DNA of 64,000 bases from an uncultured Gammaproteobacteria bacterium (GCA_964571255.1 CAZNAA010000001.1:702230-766229), one strand, 5' to 3'. Shown: positions 45,319-54,005, numbered from the stretch's first letter. Notes: a model not told the origin generated them from the sequence alone. A program made the numbers and translations.

Positions 45319-47145
45319 ATGCCAGAACAACTGCTCAAGTCTTTAAATCCTCAACAACAAGAAGCTGTTATCAACTCAGTAGGTCCCTCCATTATTTTAG
45401 CAGGAGCAGGCAGTGGAAAAACAAGAGTTTTGACTTATAAGGTACTCTATCTTGTTCTGGAAAAGCAGATCGATCCATCAGAGATATTGATGGTCACGTT
45501 CACAAATAAAGCAGCTGGAGAGATGAAGGAGAGAATTCAAACTTTTTTTGGAGAGTACCGCATTGGATCCCTTCCTCTGGTTACTACCTTTCATTCTCTT
45601 GGAGCTCGCCTTCTCAGACGTCATCCTGACAGAGTGGGTTTATCAACGGATTTTACGATTTATGATTCGACTGATCAGATTGACGCCATAAAAGAAGTGA
45701 TGCATAGCTTAGGTATTTCTCCAAAAGACGTAAAACCTAGTGCAGCACTCGGGACTATCTCCAATGCAAAAAATGAGCTGCTCTCCCCTGATCTCTATGC
45801 AAGTTTTTCTCGTGGACAATTTCAAGTTGCTGTTTCTAAAATCTATACTGCCTATCAAAAGCTATTGCAACAAAATAATGCAGTTGATTTTGACGACTTA
45901 GTCTTAAAAGGCGTCATGCTTTTAAAAGAAAATCCTGATTTAGCCCAGAAATATCAACAAACCTTTCAATATATTTTAATTGATGAGTATCAAGATACAA
46001 ATAAACCTCAATATGAATTTACCAAACTTCTCTCAAAACAAGCAAAGCATATTTGCGTGGTTGGAGACTTCTCTCAAAGTATCTATTCCTGGAGAGGAGC
46101 AGATTTTCAAAATCTCAAACGGTTTGAAGTGGATTTTCCTGGAACCAAAACCTTTTCTCTTTCCCAAAATTACCGATCAACTCAAACCATACTTGACGGA
46201 GCAACAGCTGTGATCAAAAAGAACACACTCCACCCAGTGTTGAAACTATGGACAGAAAATCCTCAAGGAGAATCTATTGAAGTCTATGAAGCAAAATCAG
46301 AACAAGATGAAGCGGACTTTATTATTCAGAAACTAATAGAGCGGGGAGTGAGTAAATTAGCAGACAACGCCGTACTCTATCGAACCAATGCCCAGTCTCG
46401 AGTGATCGAAGAAGCTTTTCTGCATCATGGAATTCCCTATACCCTTATTGGCGGAACGCGGTTTTATGAAAGAAAAGAGGTAAAAGATGTTTTGTCTTAT
46501 CTTCGACTCGTTGCTAATCCTACAGATTCTGTTTCAAAAACACGAGCTGAAAAATTAGGGAAAGGAAGATTTAGTGCTTTTGAAGAATTTCTCTCTACCA
46601 AGTCAGCTGAAGAGCGAGAAAAAACGATTGATTTACTTGATCAAATTCTTGAAAAAACTAACTATCTTTCTCTGTACAACGAAGAAGATCCAGAAGATAT
46701 GGCCCGACTTGAAAACATTAAAGAATTACGATCTGTTGCCTATAGCTTTCCTGATCTCATTGAGTTTTTAGAAAATGTTGCCTTAGTTGAGAAAGAGTAT
46801 TCAACTGAGGACGAGAAAGCCACTAAAAACACGGTTACGCTTATGACGCTTCATGCAGCCAAAGGATTAGAATTTCCTGTTATTTTTATGGTTGGCATGG
46901 AGGAGGGGATTTTTCCTCATAGTAGATCGCTTATGGATAAGCATGAATTGGAAGAAGAAAGAAGACTTTGTTATGTTGGAATTACAAGAGCTCGGGAAAA
47001 GCTCTATTTGACCTATGCTAAAAAAAGACTTTTTTTCGGACAAAGAACTGCAGGAGTCATGAGCCGCTTCCTTTTCGATTTGCCAGAAGAAGCTCTTTTA
47101 CAGCATACTAGTACTAGTTCCTATTTTGATCCTTATGACGTTTAG
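45319..47145 (+). CDS. UvrD/PcrA/Rep family ATP-dependent DNA helicase (short form)
   Basis: Walker A AGAGSGKTRVLTYKV, DEYQDTN motif II, VGDFSQSIYSWRGA motif III. Confidence 0.85.
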   Translation: MPEQLLKSLNPQQQEAVINSVGPSIILAGAGSGKTRVLTYKVLYLVLEKQIDPSEILMVTFTNKAAGEMKERIQTFFGEYRIGSLPLVTTFHSLGARLLRRHPDRVGLSTDFTIYDSTDQIDAIKEVMHSLGISPKDVKPSAALGTISNAKNELLSPDLYASFSRGQFQVAVSKIYTAYQKLLQQNNAVDFDDLVLKGVMLLKENPDLAQKYQQTFQYILIDEYQDTNKPQYEFTKLLSKQAKHICVVGDFSQSIYSWRGADFQNLKRFEVDFPGTKTFSLSQNYRSTQTILDGATAVIKKNTLHPVLKLWTENPQGESIEVYEAKSEQDEADFIIQKLIERGVSKLADNAVLYRTNAQSRVIEEAFLHHGIPYTLIGGTRFYERKEVKDVLSYLRLVANPTDSVSKTRAEKLGKGRFSAFEEFLSTKSAEEREKTIDLLDQILEKTNYLSLYNEEDPEDMARLENIKELRSVAYSFPDLIEFLENVALVEKEYSTEDEKATKNTVTLMTLHAAKGLEFPVIFMVGMEEGIFPHSRSLMDKHELEEERRLCYVGITRAREKLYLTYAKKRLFFGQRTAGVMSRFLFDLPEEALLQHTSTSSYFDPYDV

Positions 47146-50361: not shown

Positions 50362-50417
50362 GTGTATTATCGTAGCAGAAATAAAAAAGAAGGTATAGAG
50401 AAAAGGTAAGTGGTTTA

Positions 50418-50514
50418 GTGCCGGGGAGAGGAAGAGACGAGGTATTCGGCTTGTTAGCGCTCAACGCGCTTAGCCGATGTACCATCATCTTTTTTCTTCC
50501 TTCTCCCCAGGCAC
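50418..50514. repeat. 97 nt long-stem structured element, copy A (19 bp imperfect outer stem enclosing a 30 nt hairpin)
   Basis: Outer arms GTGCCGGGGAGAGGAAGAG / CTTCCTTCTCCCCAGGCAC; inner hairpin CGGCTTGTTAGCGCTCAACGCGCTTAGCCG; 3 mismatches to copy B at 52893..52989 over ~110 nt. Confidence 0.6.
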
Positions 50515-50525
50515 TTGAGCTCTTG

Positions 50526-50996
50526 CTATCGCGGGTTTGGGTTCCAGATCACTCCACTTTGGAGAAGTGCAAGAGGAGTCGTTCCTTCACTCATCTCCAC
50601 GTAGGTCTGGATTATTGCACCATGGGGGATATTCTTCCCTTTCGGGTCAAAGTGGCACTTGAGACGTGCCACAGTCGACGGCGAGGAGCAGACTGGCCAT
50701 TTGACTCCACCAAACTCAACCCAGATACTTATGCTTCGTTCAAACGAAGGACCAGTGACTACTACTTCAATTTCCACCAATCCCTCGGCGTTTTCCCGGG
50801 GGAGTCCATCAAATTTGATGAAGTCCTCCGACGTGTTTGAAGGAGTGGATGGGCGAGTAGGTACTGGTTTTGGTCGAGCCTGACTCGAGCGTGGGAGGTT
50901 GTCCCACGCCAAAGCAACGAAGATAAGAAGACCTACGAGTGCTACGGCAAAAGAACGCCATCCTGTCTGTTGTCGGTTACGTGATCGTTTGACCAT
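50526..50996 (-). CDS. signal-anchored secreted protein, module A (diverged paralog of 53002..53448)
   Basis: GGAGGTG Shine-Dalgarno before the ATG; basic N-terminus then hydrophobic helix; shares a C..FDP..IP.G..I block with the copy-B protein; visibly GC-rich. Confidence 0.5.
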   Translation of the reverse strand: MVKRSRNRQQTGWRSFAVALVGLLIFVALAWDNLPRSSQARPKPVPTRPSTPSNTSEDFIKFDGLPRENAEGLVEIEVVVTGPSFERSISIWVEFGGVKWPVCSSPSTVARLKCHFDPKGKNIPHGAIIQTYVEMSEGTTPLALLQSGVIWNPNPR

Positions 50997-51079
50997 GACT
51001 CACCTCCGTGTAAACAGATATCTCCACACCTTCCGGGACATCCGAAAGGTGAGTAGACTCGAGTGAGGGAGCAGAGATA

Positions 51080-51328
51080 CTAGAAAGTCAGGTACTGAAT
51101 CCTCGTCACTCCAGATGTTTCTCGAACCTGAGCCAGATAACTACTGATCTGGTCCGGAGTAACACCTCGATAGAGCGTTGAGAAGAGATATCGTCCCTCC
51201 TCAAGCTCAACAGGATTTCCCGCTACGGCGTTAGACGCCGGTGCTGCCGAGAAAGGAGGAAGCGTTGTATTATAGCTTCCATCCGGAAGCTTCTTCCTCG
51301 TCACTTCCACTGCAATGAGATAGTTCAT
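51080..51328 (-). CDS. small protein (82 aa), module A
   Basis: GGAGGA Shine-Dalgarno 5 nt before the ATG; first gene behind the conserved promoter and leader. Confidence 0.4.
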   Translation of the reverse strand: MNYLIAVEVTRKKLPDGSYNTTLPPFSAAPASNAVAGNPVELEEGRYLFSTLYRGVTPDQISSYLAQVRETSGVTRIQYLTF

Positions 51329-51497
51329 CAGATTCCTCCATGCGGTCTAGATCTGCCCCCTCAAAGACCGCTCAGAGAAAAAAGAAGTAATTCTTTCCTT
51401 TCTTAGCAGTCTTTGCGTAAGACAAACTAATTTAGCAAGAGCTTGTTAAAGAACTAAGAAGAAGTTGAAACGCATTTGTTTCTTTTTCTTCTTATTA
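51329..51497 (-). promoter_or_regulatory. conserved ~165 nt structured 5' leader, module A
   Basis: Hairpins AAGAAGAA-AAAGAAACAAAUGCGUUUCAAC-UUCUUCUU and GCGGUCU...AGACCGC are identical in copy B; the SD lies directly 3' of hairpin 2. Confidence 0.45.
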
Positions 51498-51503
51498 AGC
51501 GTG

Positions 51504-51532
51504 AGATTACCATAAAAATGCCTTGATGTCAA
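51504..51532 (-). promoter_or_regulatory. sigma70-type promoter, module A (-35 TTGACA, 17 nt spacer, -10 TAATCT)
   Basis: Read on the minus strand; copy B has TTGACT / 17 nt / TAATCT. Confidence 0.5.
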
Positions 51533-51597
51533 ACTATGGGATAATTTACTTTGAGTAACTTCTAGACAAGTTACACTCAAAAGAGTATAAATAGGGT

Positions 51598-52203: not shown

Positions 52204-52893
52204 ATGAAATCCCTATTCCTTAAAATTAGTTTAGTCAGTATCTATCTTGTGTGTTTTCTCGTTCCCGGTTACACCTACTTTTTCTCAAGTCCCACAACTC
52301 TTGAAACTCTTAAAAGCACTCCCATCACTGATCCGCTCTTTCACTTAACCCTTTTTAGACTTTTTGGACTCTATGCCTTTACCCTTGTCTGGAGTCAAAT
52401 TATGCTTGGAGCTCTCAGACTTCCTTTAACCAGATTTTTTGGGAGTAAAATACTAGGATTGCATATCACCTTTGGTATCACTACGCTTCTTTTCACTTTC
52501 TTGCATACCGGACTTTTTTCCCTAGCTCATTTTTTACAAACTCCACCTGTTTTTTTCCCTCCAACCATGTTGCAAACGTATTTGGGAAGTCTGGCAATCT
52601 ATGGATACTTAGGACTCATTGCCTTTGACTTGATGCTTCTCACTACTGCGGCAGGAATCCTGAGAAAGAAGTTATTTATTCGAAAATACTGGAGACTTAT
52701 TCACAAAGGGAATTATCTTATCTTTATTCTTGTTTTTATTCACAGCTCTATGATTGGGAGTGAAATAGGAACTTCTCCTATGCAATATCTCTATCGTTTC
52801 TTTCTTCTCACTTTTATTGGAGTTGTAGGGTACAAACTATACGATGCCAATAAATCCTGCTTACAAAAAGTTACGGAGAATAATGTGGCTTAG
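52204..52893 (+). CDS. bis-heme b-type membrane protein (ferric reductase / MsrQ-like transmembrane domain)
   Basis: Six predicted TM helices with two His pairs spaced 13-14 residues apart (LHITFG...FLHTG; IHKGN...FIHSS); start codon abuts the sodA stop. Confidence 0.4.
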   Translation: MKSLFLKISLVSIYLVCFLVPGYTYFFSSPTTLETLKSTPITDPLFHLTLFRLFGLYAFTLVWSQIMLGALRLPLTRFFGSKILGLHITFGITTLLFTFLHTGLFSLAHFLQTPPVFFPPTMLQTYLGSLAIYGYLGLIAFDLMLLTTAAGILRKKLFIRKYWRLIHKGNYLIFILVFIHSSMIGSEIGTSPMQYLYRFFLLTFIGVVGYKLYDANKSCLQKVTENNVA

Positions 52894-52989
52894 TGCCGAG
52901 GAGAGGAAGAGACGAGGTGTTCGGCTTGTTAGCGCTCAACGCGCTTAGCCGATGTACCATCATCTTTTTTCTTCCTTCTCCTCAGGCAC
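52893..52989. repeat. 97 nt long-stem structured element, copy B
   Basis: Starts in the stop codon of the 52204..52893 gene; the G>A change in the 5' arm is matched by C>T in the 3' arm, so pairing is preserved. Confidence 0.6.
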
Positions 52990-53001
52990 TTGAGCTCTTG
53001 C

Positions 53002-53448
53002 TTACGGGACCTTAACCTTTACTGGTGACGATCGCCAGAACTTTACTCCGGTGTTCAGCTCATACTGAATATTTATTCGCCTACCAGAGGGAATCTCCCA
53101 GATGCTTGGGTCAAACTCGCAGAGATAGATATGTCCACTCCCTCGGGGAGCGGATTGCTCGGGAGTTAGATCACAGAGATGGACCGCTACGGGAGCGTCT
53201 ATCCCTTCCCACTCCCAAGTTCCGAGGAAAGAAACAAGTGTCAGGTCATCCCTACGAGGGACATAGACACTCATCTTGATCTTTCCATCCACCACTCGGG
53301 GGGAATCATTCCAATCTGCTCCAGACTGAAGTGTCCTATTATTGAACAGGAGTGAAATCCCAAGTATTGTCAAAAGGCAGATAGTAACAAGTCCTCGTCC
53401 CCAAGAGAATTTAGAGCGCGGTCGATTAGTGTACGTCCGAGCACCCAT
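53002..53448 (-). CDS. signal-anchored secreted protein, module B
   Basis: GGAGGA Shine-Dalgarno; basic N-terminus plus TM; HIYLCEFDPSIWEIPSGRRINIQ matches CHFDPKGKNIPHGAIIQ in the module-A protein. Confidence 0.5.
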   Translation of the reverse strand: MGARTYTNRPRSKFSWGRGLVTICLLTILGISLLFNNRTLQSGADWNDSPRVVDGKIKMSVYVPRRDDLTLVSFLGTWEWEGIDAPVAVHLCDLTPEQSAPRGSGHIYLCEFDPSIWEIPSGRRINIQYELNTGVKFWRSSPVKVKVP

Positions 53449-53533
53449 AGTGGTGTCCTCCAGTTAGAGATAGTATCGCGACACTTCCGGGACATCCGAA
53501 AGTGAGTACGATTGAGTGAGGGGGCAGAGGTCA

Positions 53534-53758
53534 CTAGAAGAGCCTGTGCATGTGATAGTCGATCAGATTAGGATCAATTTTGAGATTGATCCTAAAGGTA
53601 TTCATATCTTCCTCTGAGATATGATGCCGACTTATTGAAATATAGATACCATCTTTTGGTACCGCGTCAATGCTAGCAAGCAGAGGAACTGAGTCTTGCA
53701 ACGCACATGGATACTTTCGTGAACGCATCTTACAAACAACCAAGTAATCGTACATCAT
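53534..53758 (-). CDS. small protein (74 aa), module B
   Basis: GGAGGG SD then ATGATG; same position as the module-A small ORF but highly diverged. Confidence 0.35.
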   Translation of the reverse strand: MMYDYLVVCKMRSRKYPCALQDSVPLLASIDAVPKDGIYISISRHHISEEDMNTFRINLKIDPNLIDYHMHRLF

Positions 53759-53917
53759 CCCTCCCTGCGGTCTAGATCTGCCCCCTCAAAGACCGCTCAG
53801 AGAAAAAAGAATAAGCTTCTTTTCTTTCTGAACAATCCTTAAAGAGACATTTAAGCAAGAGCTGTTAAAGAACGTAAGAAGAAGTTGAAACGCATTTGTT
53901 TCTTTTTCTTCTTATTA
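53759..53917 (-). promoter_or_regulatory. conserved structured 5' leader, module B
   Basis: Same two hairpin blocks as 51329..51497; the central ~45 nt is variable. Confidence 0.45.
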
Positions 53918-53923
53918 CGCGTG

Positions 53924-53952
53924 AGATTATCATAAAAATATCTTAAAGTCAA
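53924..53952 (-). promoter_or_regulatory. sigma70-type promoter, module B (-35 TTGACT, 17 nt, -10 TAATCT)
   Basis: Read on the minus strand. Confidence 0.5.
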
Positions 53953-54005
53953 ACTATGGGACGGTTTATGTTTGATCTTAGTGCTTTGTACAAAGGGAGA
54001 TTATC

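Follow-up and report, generated by a model that had tools for sequence, protein, structure and literature searches.

Background

Stable hairpins and imperfect palindromes at bacterial genes belong to several described systems, with which we compare a 97-nt hairpin found twice (copies A and B) in a 64,000-nucleotide stretch of DNA from an uncultured Gammaproteobacteria bacterium (GCA_964571255.1, CAZNAA010000001.1:702230-766229), called the window below. Correia and ERIC elements measure about 100-150 nt. Like the REP and BIME palindromes, they are imperfect repeats located in transcribed DNA between genes, and all of them occur as tens to hundreds of copies scattered over unrelated contexts. 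REPs in the 3' untranslated region (3'UTR) are documented as both terminator and stabiliser (bioRxiv 10.64898/2026.03.23.713779). REPs accompany RAYT transposases and Correia elements have TA duplications. Bidirectional intrinsic terminators are stable G+C-rich hairpins at gene 3' ends on both strands, with an A tract and a U tract on either side of the inner hairpin, strict Watson-Crick pairing and compensatory substitutions (PMC5381666). Integron attC sites are imperfect palindromes of 57-141 nt with extrahelical bases at the 3' end of a short cassette, and they are highly identical within one chromosome while the open reading frames (ORFs) of the cassettes differ. Furthermore, some variable surface-protein families have conserved non-coding frames, such as the Sma/Cla 3' repeat of Neisseria pilin and the 5' regions of Mycoplasma vsp/vlp.

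The hairpin of the window is not free-standing. It is the conserved end-piece of a two-gene cassette of about 1.1 kb, here called the module, which is present twice in this genome. Functionally it is most like a large bidirectional terminator or a 3'UTR palindrome, and it is without known family. All the features of bidirectional intrinsic terminators listed above recur in it; unlike them, it is 97 nt long, carries an extra 19-bp outer clamp enclosing the U tract, is repeated inside a larger module and has no U tract after the full hairpin on the minus strand. Where REP, ERIC and Correia elements are dispersed, there are two copies here in a constant gene context, with no sequence similarity to those elements and with neither RAYT transposases nor TA duplications. 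With attC sites it shares the imperfect palindrome, the extrahelical bases, the place at the 3' end of a short cassette and the high identity between copies whose ORFs differ. Unlike in attC arrays, the two modules lie 2.5 kb apart with host genes between them, and a promoter-like region and a 5'UTR belong to either one. The likeness to variable surface-protein loci is an analogy only: in both cases hypervariable exported or surface genes lie between conserved non-coding sequences that are possible recombination anchors, whereas here neither a repertoire of silent cassettes nor a site-specific recombinase was seen, the loci number only two, and organism and proteins are unrelated.

We put the probability at about one half that the hairpin is a dual 3'-end element, which acts as a bidirectional terminator or insulator and in addition as a 3' exonuclease block and mRNA stabiliser of a horizontally acquired module.

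Structure and extent of the hairpin

Copy A (50418-50514) and copy B (52893-52989) are not assigned to a strand. In copy A the arm GTGCCGGGGAGAGGAAGAG (50418-50436) pairs with CTTCCTTCTCCCCAGGCAC (50496-50514), leaving two bulged bases on one arm. This 19-nt arm pairing had been proposed in a first-pass annotation of the window, and the inner hairpin described there, CGGCU..AGCGC-UCAAC-GCGCU-U-AGCCG followed by a U6 tract, is present as well. Both copies have the same layout: an outer stem of 18 bp, interrupted by two bulges of one base each, is followed by a mid stem and then by the inner hairpin with its two tiers of 5+5 bp. Between the mid and outer stems lies an unpaired tract, which reads U6 on the plus strand and A6 on the minus strand.

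Folding both copies on both strands, as the first-pass annotation had suggested, gave one long hairpin each time (-51 to -57 kcal/mol). The energies are -53.6 (A) and -51.4 (B) kcal/mol for plus-strand RNA and -56.6 (A) and -52.9 (B) kcal/mol for minus-strand RNA, with z-scores of -7.7 to -9.8 and none of 200 dinucleotide shuffles equally stable. The same fold is obtained for single-stranded DNA (-25.5 to -30.4 kcal/mol). The structure is real, well beyond chance, and it is clearly maintained.

The two copies differ at three of the 97 positions: 50424 G/52899 A, 50444 A/52919 G and 50507 C/52982 T. Positions 50424 and 50507 (52899 and 52982 in copy B) are pairing partners, so that the G-C pair of copy A becomes an A-U pair in copy B, which agrees with the paired substitution noted earlier. 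Copy B starts inside a stop codon, also as noted earlier, its first base being the G of the TAG (52891-52893) of a gene for a ferric-reductase-like heme protein.

The true length of the repeat is 118 nt rather than 97 (50410-50527 and 52885-53002, both given on the minus strand), with 95.7-97% identity between A and B. In addition to the hairpin, this conserved block includes GTGGYTTAG on one side and TTGAGCTCTTGCT on the other. A covariance model of the repeat, which the first-pass annotation had called for in order to count copies and find more covariation, recovered both copies and, with filters off, found no third copy in the 64 kb.

The duplicated module

Module A (50410-51572) and module B (52885-53995) are the only extended GC-rich islands in the 64 kb, at about 50% compared with 37.5%. 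Read on the minus strand, both have the same order, namely a promoter-like site, a 5'UTR of about 170 nt, ORF1, an intergenic hairpin, ORF2, a motif of 11-12 nt that holds the ORF2 stop codon and finally, 3-4 nt past this motif, the 97-nt hairpin. The stop codons of ORF2A and ORF2B are found 11-12 nt ahead of the hairpin. Two further repeat families have the same spacing of about 2.4-2.5 kb (51332-51386/53757-53811, 96% identical; 51431-51548/53851-53968, 86% identical). Between A and B the promoter and 5'UTR are 83.6% identical and the intergenic region 74%, compared with 52% for ORF1 and 51% for ORF2 at the nucleotide level, which is the level of unalignable DNA. The conserved parts span the region from the promoter-like site to the hairpin and thus correspond to one transcription unit, and the hairpins A and B are alike because this whole unit is repeated. 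It had been argued that a terminator role alone could not explain the conservation of copy A. This argument fails, as both copies take the same position after paralogous minus-strand ORF2 genes, and with the repeated module in view copy A is no longer puzzling.

The same constancy of position bears on the idea that the hairpin is an independent miniature inverted-repeat transposable element (MITE) of the Correia or ERIC kind which inserted twice. Its 19-nt inverted arms, its length of about 100 nt and its intergenic location would suit such an element, and short-read assemblies break inside the hairpin. Nevertheless this reading is largely refuted and very improbable: the hairpin always follows an ORF2 homolog in the same register and within a larger repeated unit, no duplication flanks the 97-nt or 118-nt block, and neither the 64 kb, out of a genome of 773 kb, nor some 85 kb from related loci contain a solo copy.

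ORF2A (50526-50996, minus strand) encodes 156 aa with an N-terminal transmembrane helix, a disordered linker and an Ig/FnIII-like beta-sandwich, and belongs to an orphan family. Its paralog ORF2B (53002-53448, minus strand) encodes 148 aa with about 24% amino acid identity. The ORF1 proteins have 82 aa (ORF1A, 51080-51328, minus strand) and 74 aa (ORF1B, 53534-53758, minus strand); ORF1A is predicted to have a small alpha/beta fold of the ferredoxin/ACT type and has no family. In the AlphaFold models, the transmembrane helix and the disordered linker of ORF2 are followed by a confident beta-sandwich (C-terminal pLDDT about 90), whose structure matches are generic Ig/FnIII sandwiches only, with E no better than 0.003. 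The ACT/ferredoxin-like model of ORF1 has a pLDDT of 83 and its structure matches are likewise generic. ORF1 and ORF2 are genuine genes despite their divergence. Differences in ORF2 between strain pairs fall most often on the third codon position, then on the first and least on the second, with many synonymous codons, and the three or four ORF2 versions share a Cys...C-x-FDP...IP-G...W motif.

Neither ORF has a family in Pfam, PHROGs or PADLOC, where the sole entry was a 'membrane protein' PHROG with an E-value of 0.099. A full HMMER scan of 1.84 billion representative proteins returned only the two ORF2 proteins of the window, and together with a word-indexed search it gave these two and two close relatives from Logan/ENA and none else. 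Moreover, module A had no match in 50,697 phage records (blastn).

The promoter-like site of module A (51506-51532, minus strand) reads TTGACA-15-GGTAAT and lies at the upstream edge of conservation. It is a weak consensus match which was not called by the scanner; its counterpart in module B is TTGACT-15-GATAAT.

Related strains and the insertion of module B

Relatives were found as Logan/ENA contigs, the short ones from exact-protein look-ups. The samples carrying the repeat are SRR8893622, SRR8893625, SRR35242003, SRR32548947, ERZ15185638 and ERZ28620071, and a literature search turned up no paper with the sample accessions. The short contigs terminate inside the hairpin or the upstream repeat, which is expected because assemblies break at repeats. 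One of them, L004, is 98% identical to module A. L002 and L003 represent the orthologous locus A with an ORF2 that is 59% identical in protein and an ORF1 without nucleotide match, and L018 has a B-type ORF2 with a partial hairpin. Two longer contigs of sister strains, L019 (44 kb) and L020, are syntenic with the window, and their host genes are 85.5-88.2% identical. In all these strains (L002/L003, L019/L020 and, in part, L018) the hairpin is found in the same place, directly after the ORF2 homolog.

In L019 (8560-9130) and L020 (1626-2200) module A has decayed. ORF2 has lost its 5' half, the intergenic hairpin is gone as well and gene calling gives nothing there, yet the 3' hairpin and the 5'UTR are kept intact. 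Module B is absent from both contigs, in which the stop codon of the heme-protein gene abuts that of the RNase H gene (L019 10670-10690). By comparison of this empty site with the filled one, module B is an insertion of 1111 nt (52885-53995, minus strand), which has the same first base as the 118-nt block and so begins 8 nt ahead of the hairpin. To its left is GGAGAATAAT (52875-52884) and to its right GGAGATTATC (53996-54005); the two form an imperfect 10-bp direct repeat with 8 of 10 positions identical, a candidate target-site duplication, and the empty site in L019 has a single GGAGAATAG.

More distant relatives (L021-L025, heme protein 48-51% identical) share the gene backbone of helicase, FemAB, methyltransferase, heme protein and RNase H. 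They have no module, and the covariance model found no hairpin in them. Because both modules are absent from relatives that share the gene backbone, they are lineage-specific acquisitions.

These observations also bear on a different reading, in which the hairpin works at the DNA level, either as the structure by which the end of a cassette of 1.1 kb, mobile or exchangeable, is recognised or as a homology anchor for the swapping of ORF alleles. It would be extruded as a cruciform or as single-stranded DNA and used by a recombinase or transposase supplied in trans. Such a site would account for the insertion of module B from the first base of the 118-nt block, for the direct repeat with one copy at the empty site, and for the strict Watson-Crick stem, whose two extrahelical bases, spaced by 8 nt, recall folded sites of the attC type. 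Allele exchange is further suggested by ORF1 of L002 (434-695, 93 aa), which has no detectable nucleotide similarity to 51080-51328 (82 aa) of the window, and the flanks are about 92% identical; this points to allele replacement and not to divergence in place. More generally, the ORFs are replaced or very divergent between strains within a kept frame, with about 50% synonymous codon change in ORF2. Lastly, hairpins A and B are more alike within one genome (95.7%) than the orthologous A hairpins are between strains (88-92%).

We nevertheless regard a DNA-level site as rather unlikely. The genes called in the 20-kb syntenic locus include no integrase, transposase or reverse transcriptase, terminal inverted repeats are lacking in the module, and attC core sites of the R''/R' type are missing. 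There are just two copies in the 64 kb, and only two proteins of the 1.84-billion-protein library belong to the ORF2 family. No direct repeat was found around module A, and the one around module B has two mismatches and may be due to chance or microhomology.

A bolder version, which we consider improbable, takes the hairpin as the end-structure of an undescribed mobile cassette that is self-expressed from promoter to hairpin (about 1.1 kb). This cassette would carry hypervariable genes for membrane-anchored surface proteins, make target duplications of about 10 bp and depend on a factor encoded elsewhere, and its core might be invertible between 50518-50528 and 51433-51443, which would give phase variation.

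At the right end of insert B is a 12-nt perfect palindrome, CTTTGTACAAAG (53984-53995); in module A the equivalent position (51552-51577) is taken by another inverted repeat, of 9 bp (GAGTAACTT...AAGTTAC-CTC). The IS200/IS605-type ends of palindrome-associated transposable elements (PATE) are marked by a subterminal hairpin at either end, no target duplication and a Y1 transposase. Here the large hairpin is 8 nt from one end of insert B and the other end has only this 12-nt palindrome. The candidate 10-bp duplication argues against IS200/IS605, and no TnpA was seen in the 20-kb syntenic locus.

Some further observations concern the surroundings of the two modules. The last three codons of the heme gene (GTG GCT TAG, 52885-52893) lie inside the inserted repeat, and the insertion, together with a 1-nt frame difference upstream, leads to a different C-terminus of the heme protein, …TENNVA in the window and …SYGE in L019. 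In two distant relatives the gap between the heme gene and the RNase H gene (L023, 6651-7778; L025, 4346-5572) holds a gene for a protein of 375 or 408 aa which is not related to ORF2 and has a twin-arginine-like signal, so that the junction is a variable one. At the position where the window has module A and an Fe/Mn superoxide dismutase (SOD), distant relatives have a Ni-SOD and an S26/S24 peptidase (L021, 5135-5933; L025, 2764-3538), so the SOD type is swapped at the position of module A.

Covariation of the hairpin

For the analysis of covariation we used the four distinct versions of the hairpin (A, B, L002 and L019) in a model-guided alignment with 42 pairs and 167 pair cells. Standard pairs are found in 96.4% of the cells, compared with 38-47% after a shift of the partners by 1-3 columns. 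Among the 42 pairs a single one, 50424/50507, changes on both sides, and one further pair alternates between U-G and C-G among the four versions. The first-pass annotation had called the paired change a textbook covariation, and this wording is too strong. In a column-shuffle control 165 of 500 shuffles reached the same covariation value. By simulation, three random substitutions in 97 nt produce a double change that preserves Watson-Crick pairing in 1.2% of cases (p = 0.012), so the event is nominally improbable by chance, yet it is one event only. Compensatory switches are routine in ordinary terminators (PMC5381666), and a single template-switch mutation in a quasi-palindrome can write a compensated change without selection (PMC8794818). 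With few versions, one event and a mutational route that makes both changes together, the covariation is suggestive, neither textbook nor proven. As the 5' arm of L018, a contig from another sample, carries the B-type variant too, a sequencing error can be discounted and the change is fixed in the B lineage.

All 22 pairs of the outer stem are G-C or A-U in all four versions, with zero G-U, 98.9% of its cells are paired, and its sole substitution went fully from G-C to A-U. The lack of G-U pairs is expected for a helix which forms on both strands, or in DNA. Disruptive changes do exist (U-A to A-A or A-G, A-U to A-C, one deleted G); they are located at helix ends by loops and mostly in the mid stem. 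On the functional strand, the G-U pairs of the hairpin give contradictory evidence.

Could the hairpin be without any function of its own? In that case the palindrome would have been copied along with the module and kept similar by gene conversion, with the change from G-C to A-U made in one template-switching step, a process that does produce fully compensated hairpin changes. The single compensated pair and the non-significant shuffle control would agree with this, as would the rate of change: the divergence of the hairpin between strains (88-92% identity) is about that of host coding DNA (85.5-88.2%, or 90.9% for the one host-gene segment of L002). We hold this explanation to be distinctly unlikely, since neutral non-coding DNA should be scrambled at the level of divergence seen in the ORFs, while the structure is kept in all four versions at the pairing frequency given above. 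Moreover, the hairpin is intact in L019 and L020 despite the decayed ORF2, the outer stem has fewer changes than the interior, and all other non-coding parts of the module show structure-preserving changes.

Proposed termination and stabilisation at the 3' end

The reading of the hairpin as a dual 3'-end element would work as follows. The module mRNA would be transcribed from the minus strand, and the hairpin would form 3-4 nt after the ORF2 stop motif, which itself would pair with the 5'UTR. This closed and highly structured 3' end may block 3' exonucleases and keep transcription from running on into the gene beyond. In the plus-strand transcript, the inner hairpin and the U6-7 behind it would act as a canonical intrinsic terminator and stop convergent transcription, at copy B that of the SOD-heme operon, from running antisense into the module. 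The outer stem would be held strictly Watson-Crick, with a change from G-C to A-U as its sole substitution, because the element must fold in both transcripts.

Several features are consistent with this, among them the constant place of the hairpin after an ORF2 homolog in the window and in related strains, the span of conservation over one transcription unit, the strand symmetry of the outer stem and the precedent of REPs. On the plus strand the inner and mid stems together have a free energy of -22 to -23.5 kcal/mol and are directly followed by U6 (A and B) or U7 (L019), and L002 has the complementary A7; a stable G+C-rich stem-loop followed by a U tract is thus present in all versions. A simple terminator scanner made no call at the hairpin, because loop and bulges exceed the limits of the scanner. 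On the minus strand the inner hairpin (-26 to -27.6 kcal/mol) is preceded by an A tract and followed by UCUCUUCC, with a weak U tract only. The hairpin is located just downstream of the ORF2A and ORF2B stop codons, the heme-gene stop overlaps copy B, and for plus-strand transcription copy B marks where the SOD-heme operon ends. The location at gene 3' ends and the role of a bidirectional terminator, both suggested by the first-pass annotation, therefore fit. So does its remark that the element is far larger than a normal terminator: the ordinary terminator-like sites of the window have stems of 5-11 bp and are no more frequent than in shuffles. As these sites are far smaller, the hairpin is not the standard terminator of this genome.

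Other features weigh against the dual 3'-end element. The full hairpin is followed on the minus strand by CUAAACCAC..., without a U tract, and intrinsic termination on this strand would not be canonical. The 19-bp outer clamp is superfluous for a terminator, given that the other terminator-like sites in the window are about 25 nt long, and copy A has no obvious convergent plus-strand gene to terminate. The covariation is not significant with four sequences. The G-U pairs of the mid stem conflict on the strand, with columns 44/93 favouring the minus and columns 51/87 the plus strand. Moreover, the perfect strand symmetry is equally expected of a DNA-level site.

A role mainly as a processed RNA, in which RNase III cuts the long duplex and thereby releases a small RNA derived from the 3'UTR or controls the half-life of the mRNA, appears quite improbable. 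The element does lie in the 3'UTR of a structured mRNA, and RNase III could plausibly cut a bulged duplex of about 20 bp. However, the conserved block contains no promoter on either of its sides, complementarity to a target was not identified, and none of 4227 Rfam families matched even at E<=5, bar generic miRNA-hairpin noise. Among the alternatives listed in the first-pass annotation, a stand-alone small RNA gene is unlikely, because the conserved block has no upstream promoter on either strand, whereas the recombination site and the processed 3'UTR RNA are retained as the rival readings weighed here.

Other RNA structures of the module

Structure-preserving change on minus-strand RNA is also seen in the remaining conserved non-coding parts, that is the 5'UTR, the intergenic region and a closing helix between the two ends. 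These are signs of selection on RNA structure and speak for the dual 3'-end element.

A long hairpin in the 5'UTR, rich in G-U pairs, is located at 51351-51427 in module A and at 53776-53850 in module B (both on the minus strand). It has 33 pairs, of which nine are G-U or U-G in every sequence, with eight wobble substitutions and two changes on both sides. As its G-U pairs would be A-C mismatches on the other strand, it is a structure of minus-strand RNA only. In its 5' arm, transitions between the copies keep the pairing with an invariant 3' arm. The hairpin overlaps an alternative hairpin, GCGGUCU...AGACCGC, just upstream of the ribosome-binding site of ORF1, and the two could be a regulatory switch.

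The intergenic hairpin of module A (51027-51051, minus strand) has the form CACCUUUCGG-AUGUC-CCGGAAGGUG. Its counterpart in module B (53482-53504, minus strand) is shorter by one base pair through a paired deletion, which is also found in L018, and L002 (about 727-751) has a double change from U-A to C-G.

The closing helix is predicted between the motif at the ORF2 stop and the 5'UTR. In module A the 3' motif, UAGCAAGAGCU on the mRNA (50518-50528, minus strand), includes the ORF2A stop and is complementary to AGCUCUUGCUA in the 5'UTR (51433-51443, minus strand). In module B the 3' motif UAAGCAAGAGCU (52993-53004, minus strand) includes the ORF2B stop and is one base longer, and its 5'UTR partner AGCUCUUGCUUA (53852-53863, minus strand) has the matching extra base. 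A C-to-U change in L019 leaves the pair as G-U. When the complete transcripts of A, B and L002 (about 1.1 kb) are folded, by minimum energy as well as by partition function, the pairs of this helix have probabilities of 0.87-1.0, although it would have to close across about 900 nt of unrelated intervening sequence. On these predictions the module looks like an mRNA with tied ends, with the 97-nt hairpin 3-4 nt beyond the closing helix. Seen as DNA, the closing motifs could equally be the arms of an invertible segment which brackets the coding part of each module.

Taken alone, the hairpin is of modest interest, as a further large 3'UTR terminator or stabiliser element without known family. Its context is more unusual. 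An orphan GC-rich cassette keeps its promoter and its 5'UTR, intergenic and 3' RNA structures while both proteins, one of them with a membrane-anchored Ig-like domain, are replaced or diverge beyond recognition between close strains, and one of its copies is an insertion polymorphism, which makes the cassette a more interesting object than the hairpin. If confirmed, it would be a compact model of how bacteria with small genomes vary a surface protein within a fixed expression frame. It would also offer a natural test of selection on a structure of both strands, without G-U pairs, compared with a structure of one strand, with many.

Searches for known elements

The candidates from known families which we tried and rejected include mobile palindromes as well as structured RNAs. 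REP and BIME elements are palindromes of 20-40 nt with many copies and RAYT, and the hairpin has 97 nt, two copies and no transposase-like Pfam match nearby. As for MITE, Correia and ERIC elements, terminal inverted repeats are present in the form of the 19-nt arms, which is trivially true of long hairpins, but there is no flanking duplication and there are no dispersed copies. The RYYYAAC/GTTRRRY cores of integron attC sites are absent; the ends are AGTGCC...GGCACT, and the nearest candidate, GCTCAAG, has no complementary partner. Phage_integrase and IntI had no match in the 20-kb syntenic locus. A retron or a diversity-generating retroelement was rejected as there is no reverse transcriptase in the neighbourhood, where the RVT_3 match of the nearby RNase H protein reflects the RNase H-like fold.

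We also searched contig collections with a pattern of the stem core, GGAGAAGGAAGA-N40-70-TCTTCCTCTCC. It matched one genome contig (L005), 12 metagenome contigs (L006-L017) and no viral contig, and all these matches are low-complexity chance matches to a purine-rich pattern. Viral contigs were also searched with a 17-mer of the inner hairpin, with the 5'UTR motif and with the hairpin of the intergenic region, and gave two chance matches only.

There is no tRNA or tmRNA in the window, and the Rfam scans showed no riboswitch or other known RNA at the hairpin. The hairpin had no Rfam match at the gathering threshold, and at E<=5 it matched one miRNA precursor model with 20.6 bits (gathering 81). 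The sole Rfam match above gathering in the window is RF03531 ('C. difficile sRNA included into helicase gene') at 46924-47023 on the plus strand, with 74.6 bits. As this match lies inside a UvrD-like helicase ORF (45319-47145), it is probably conserved coding sequence.

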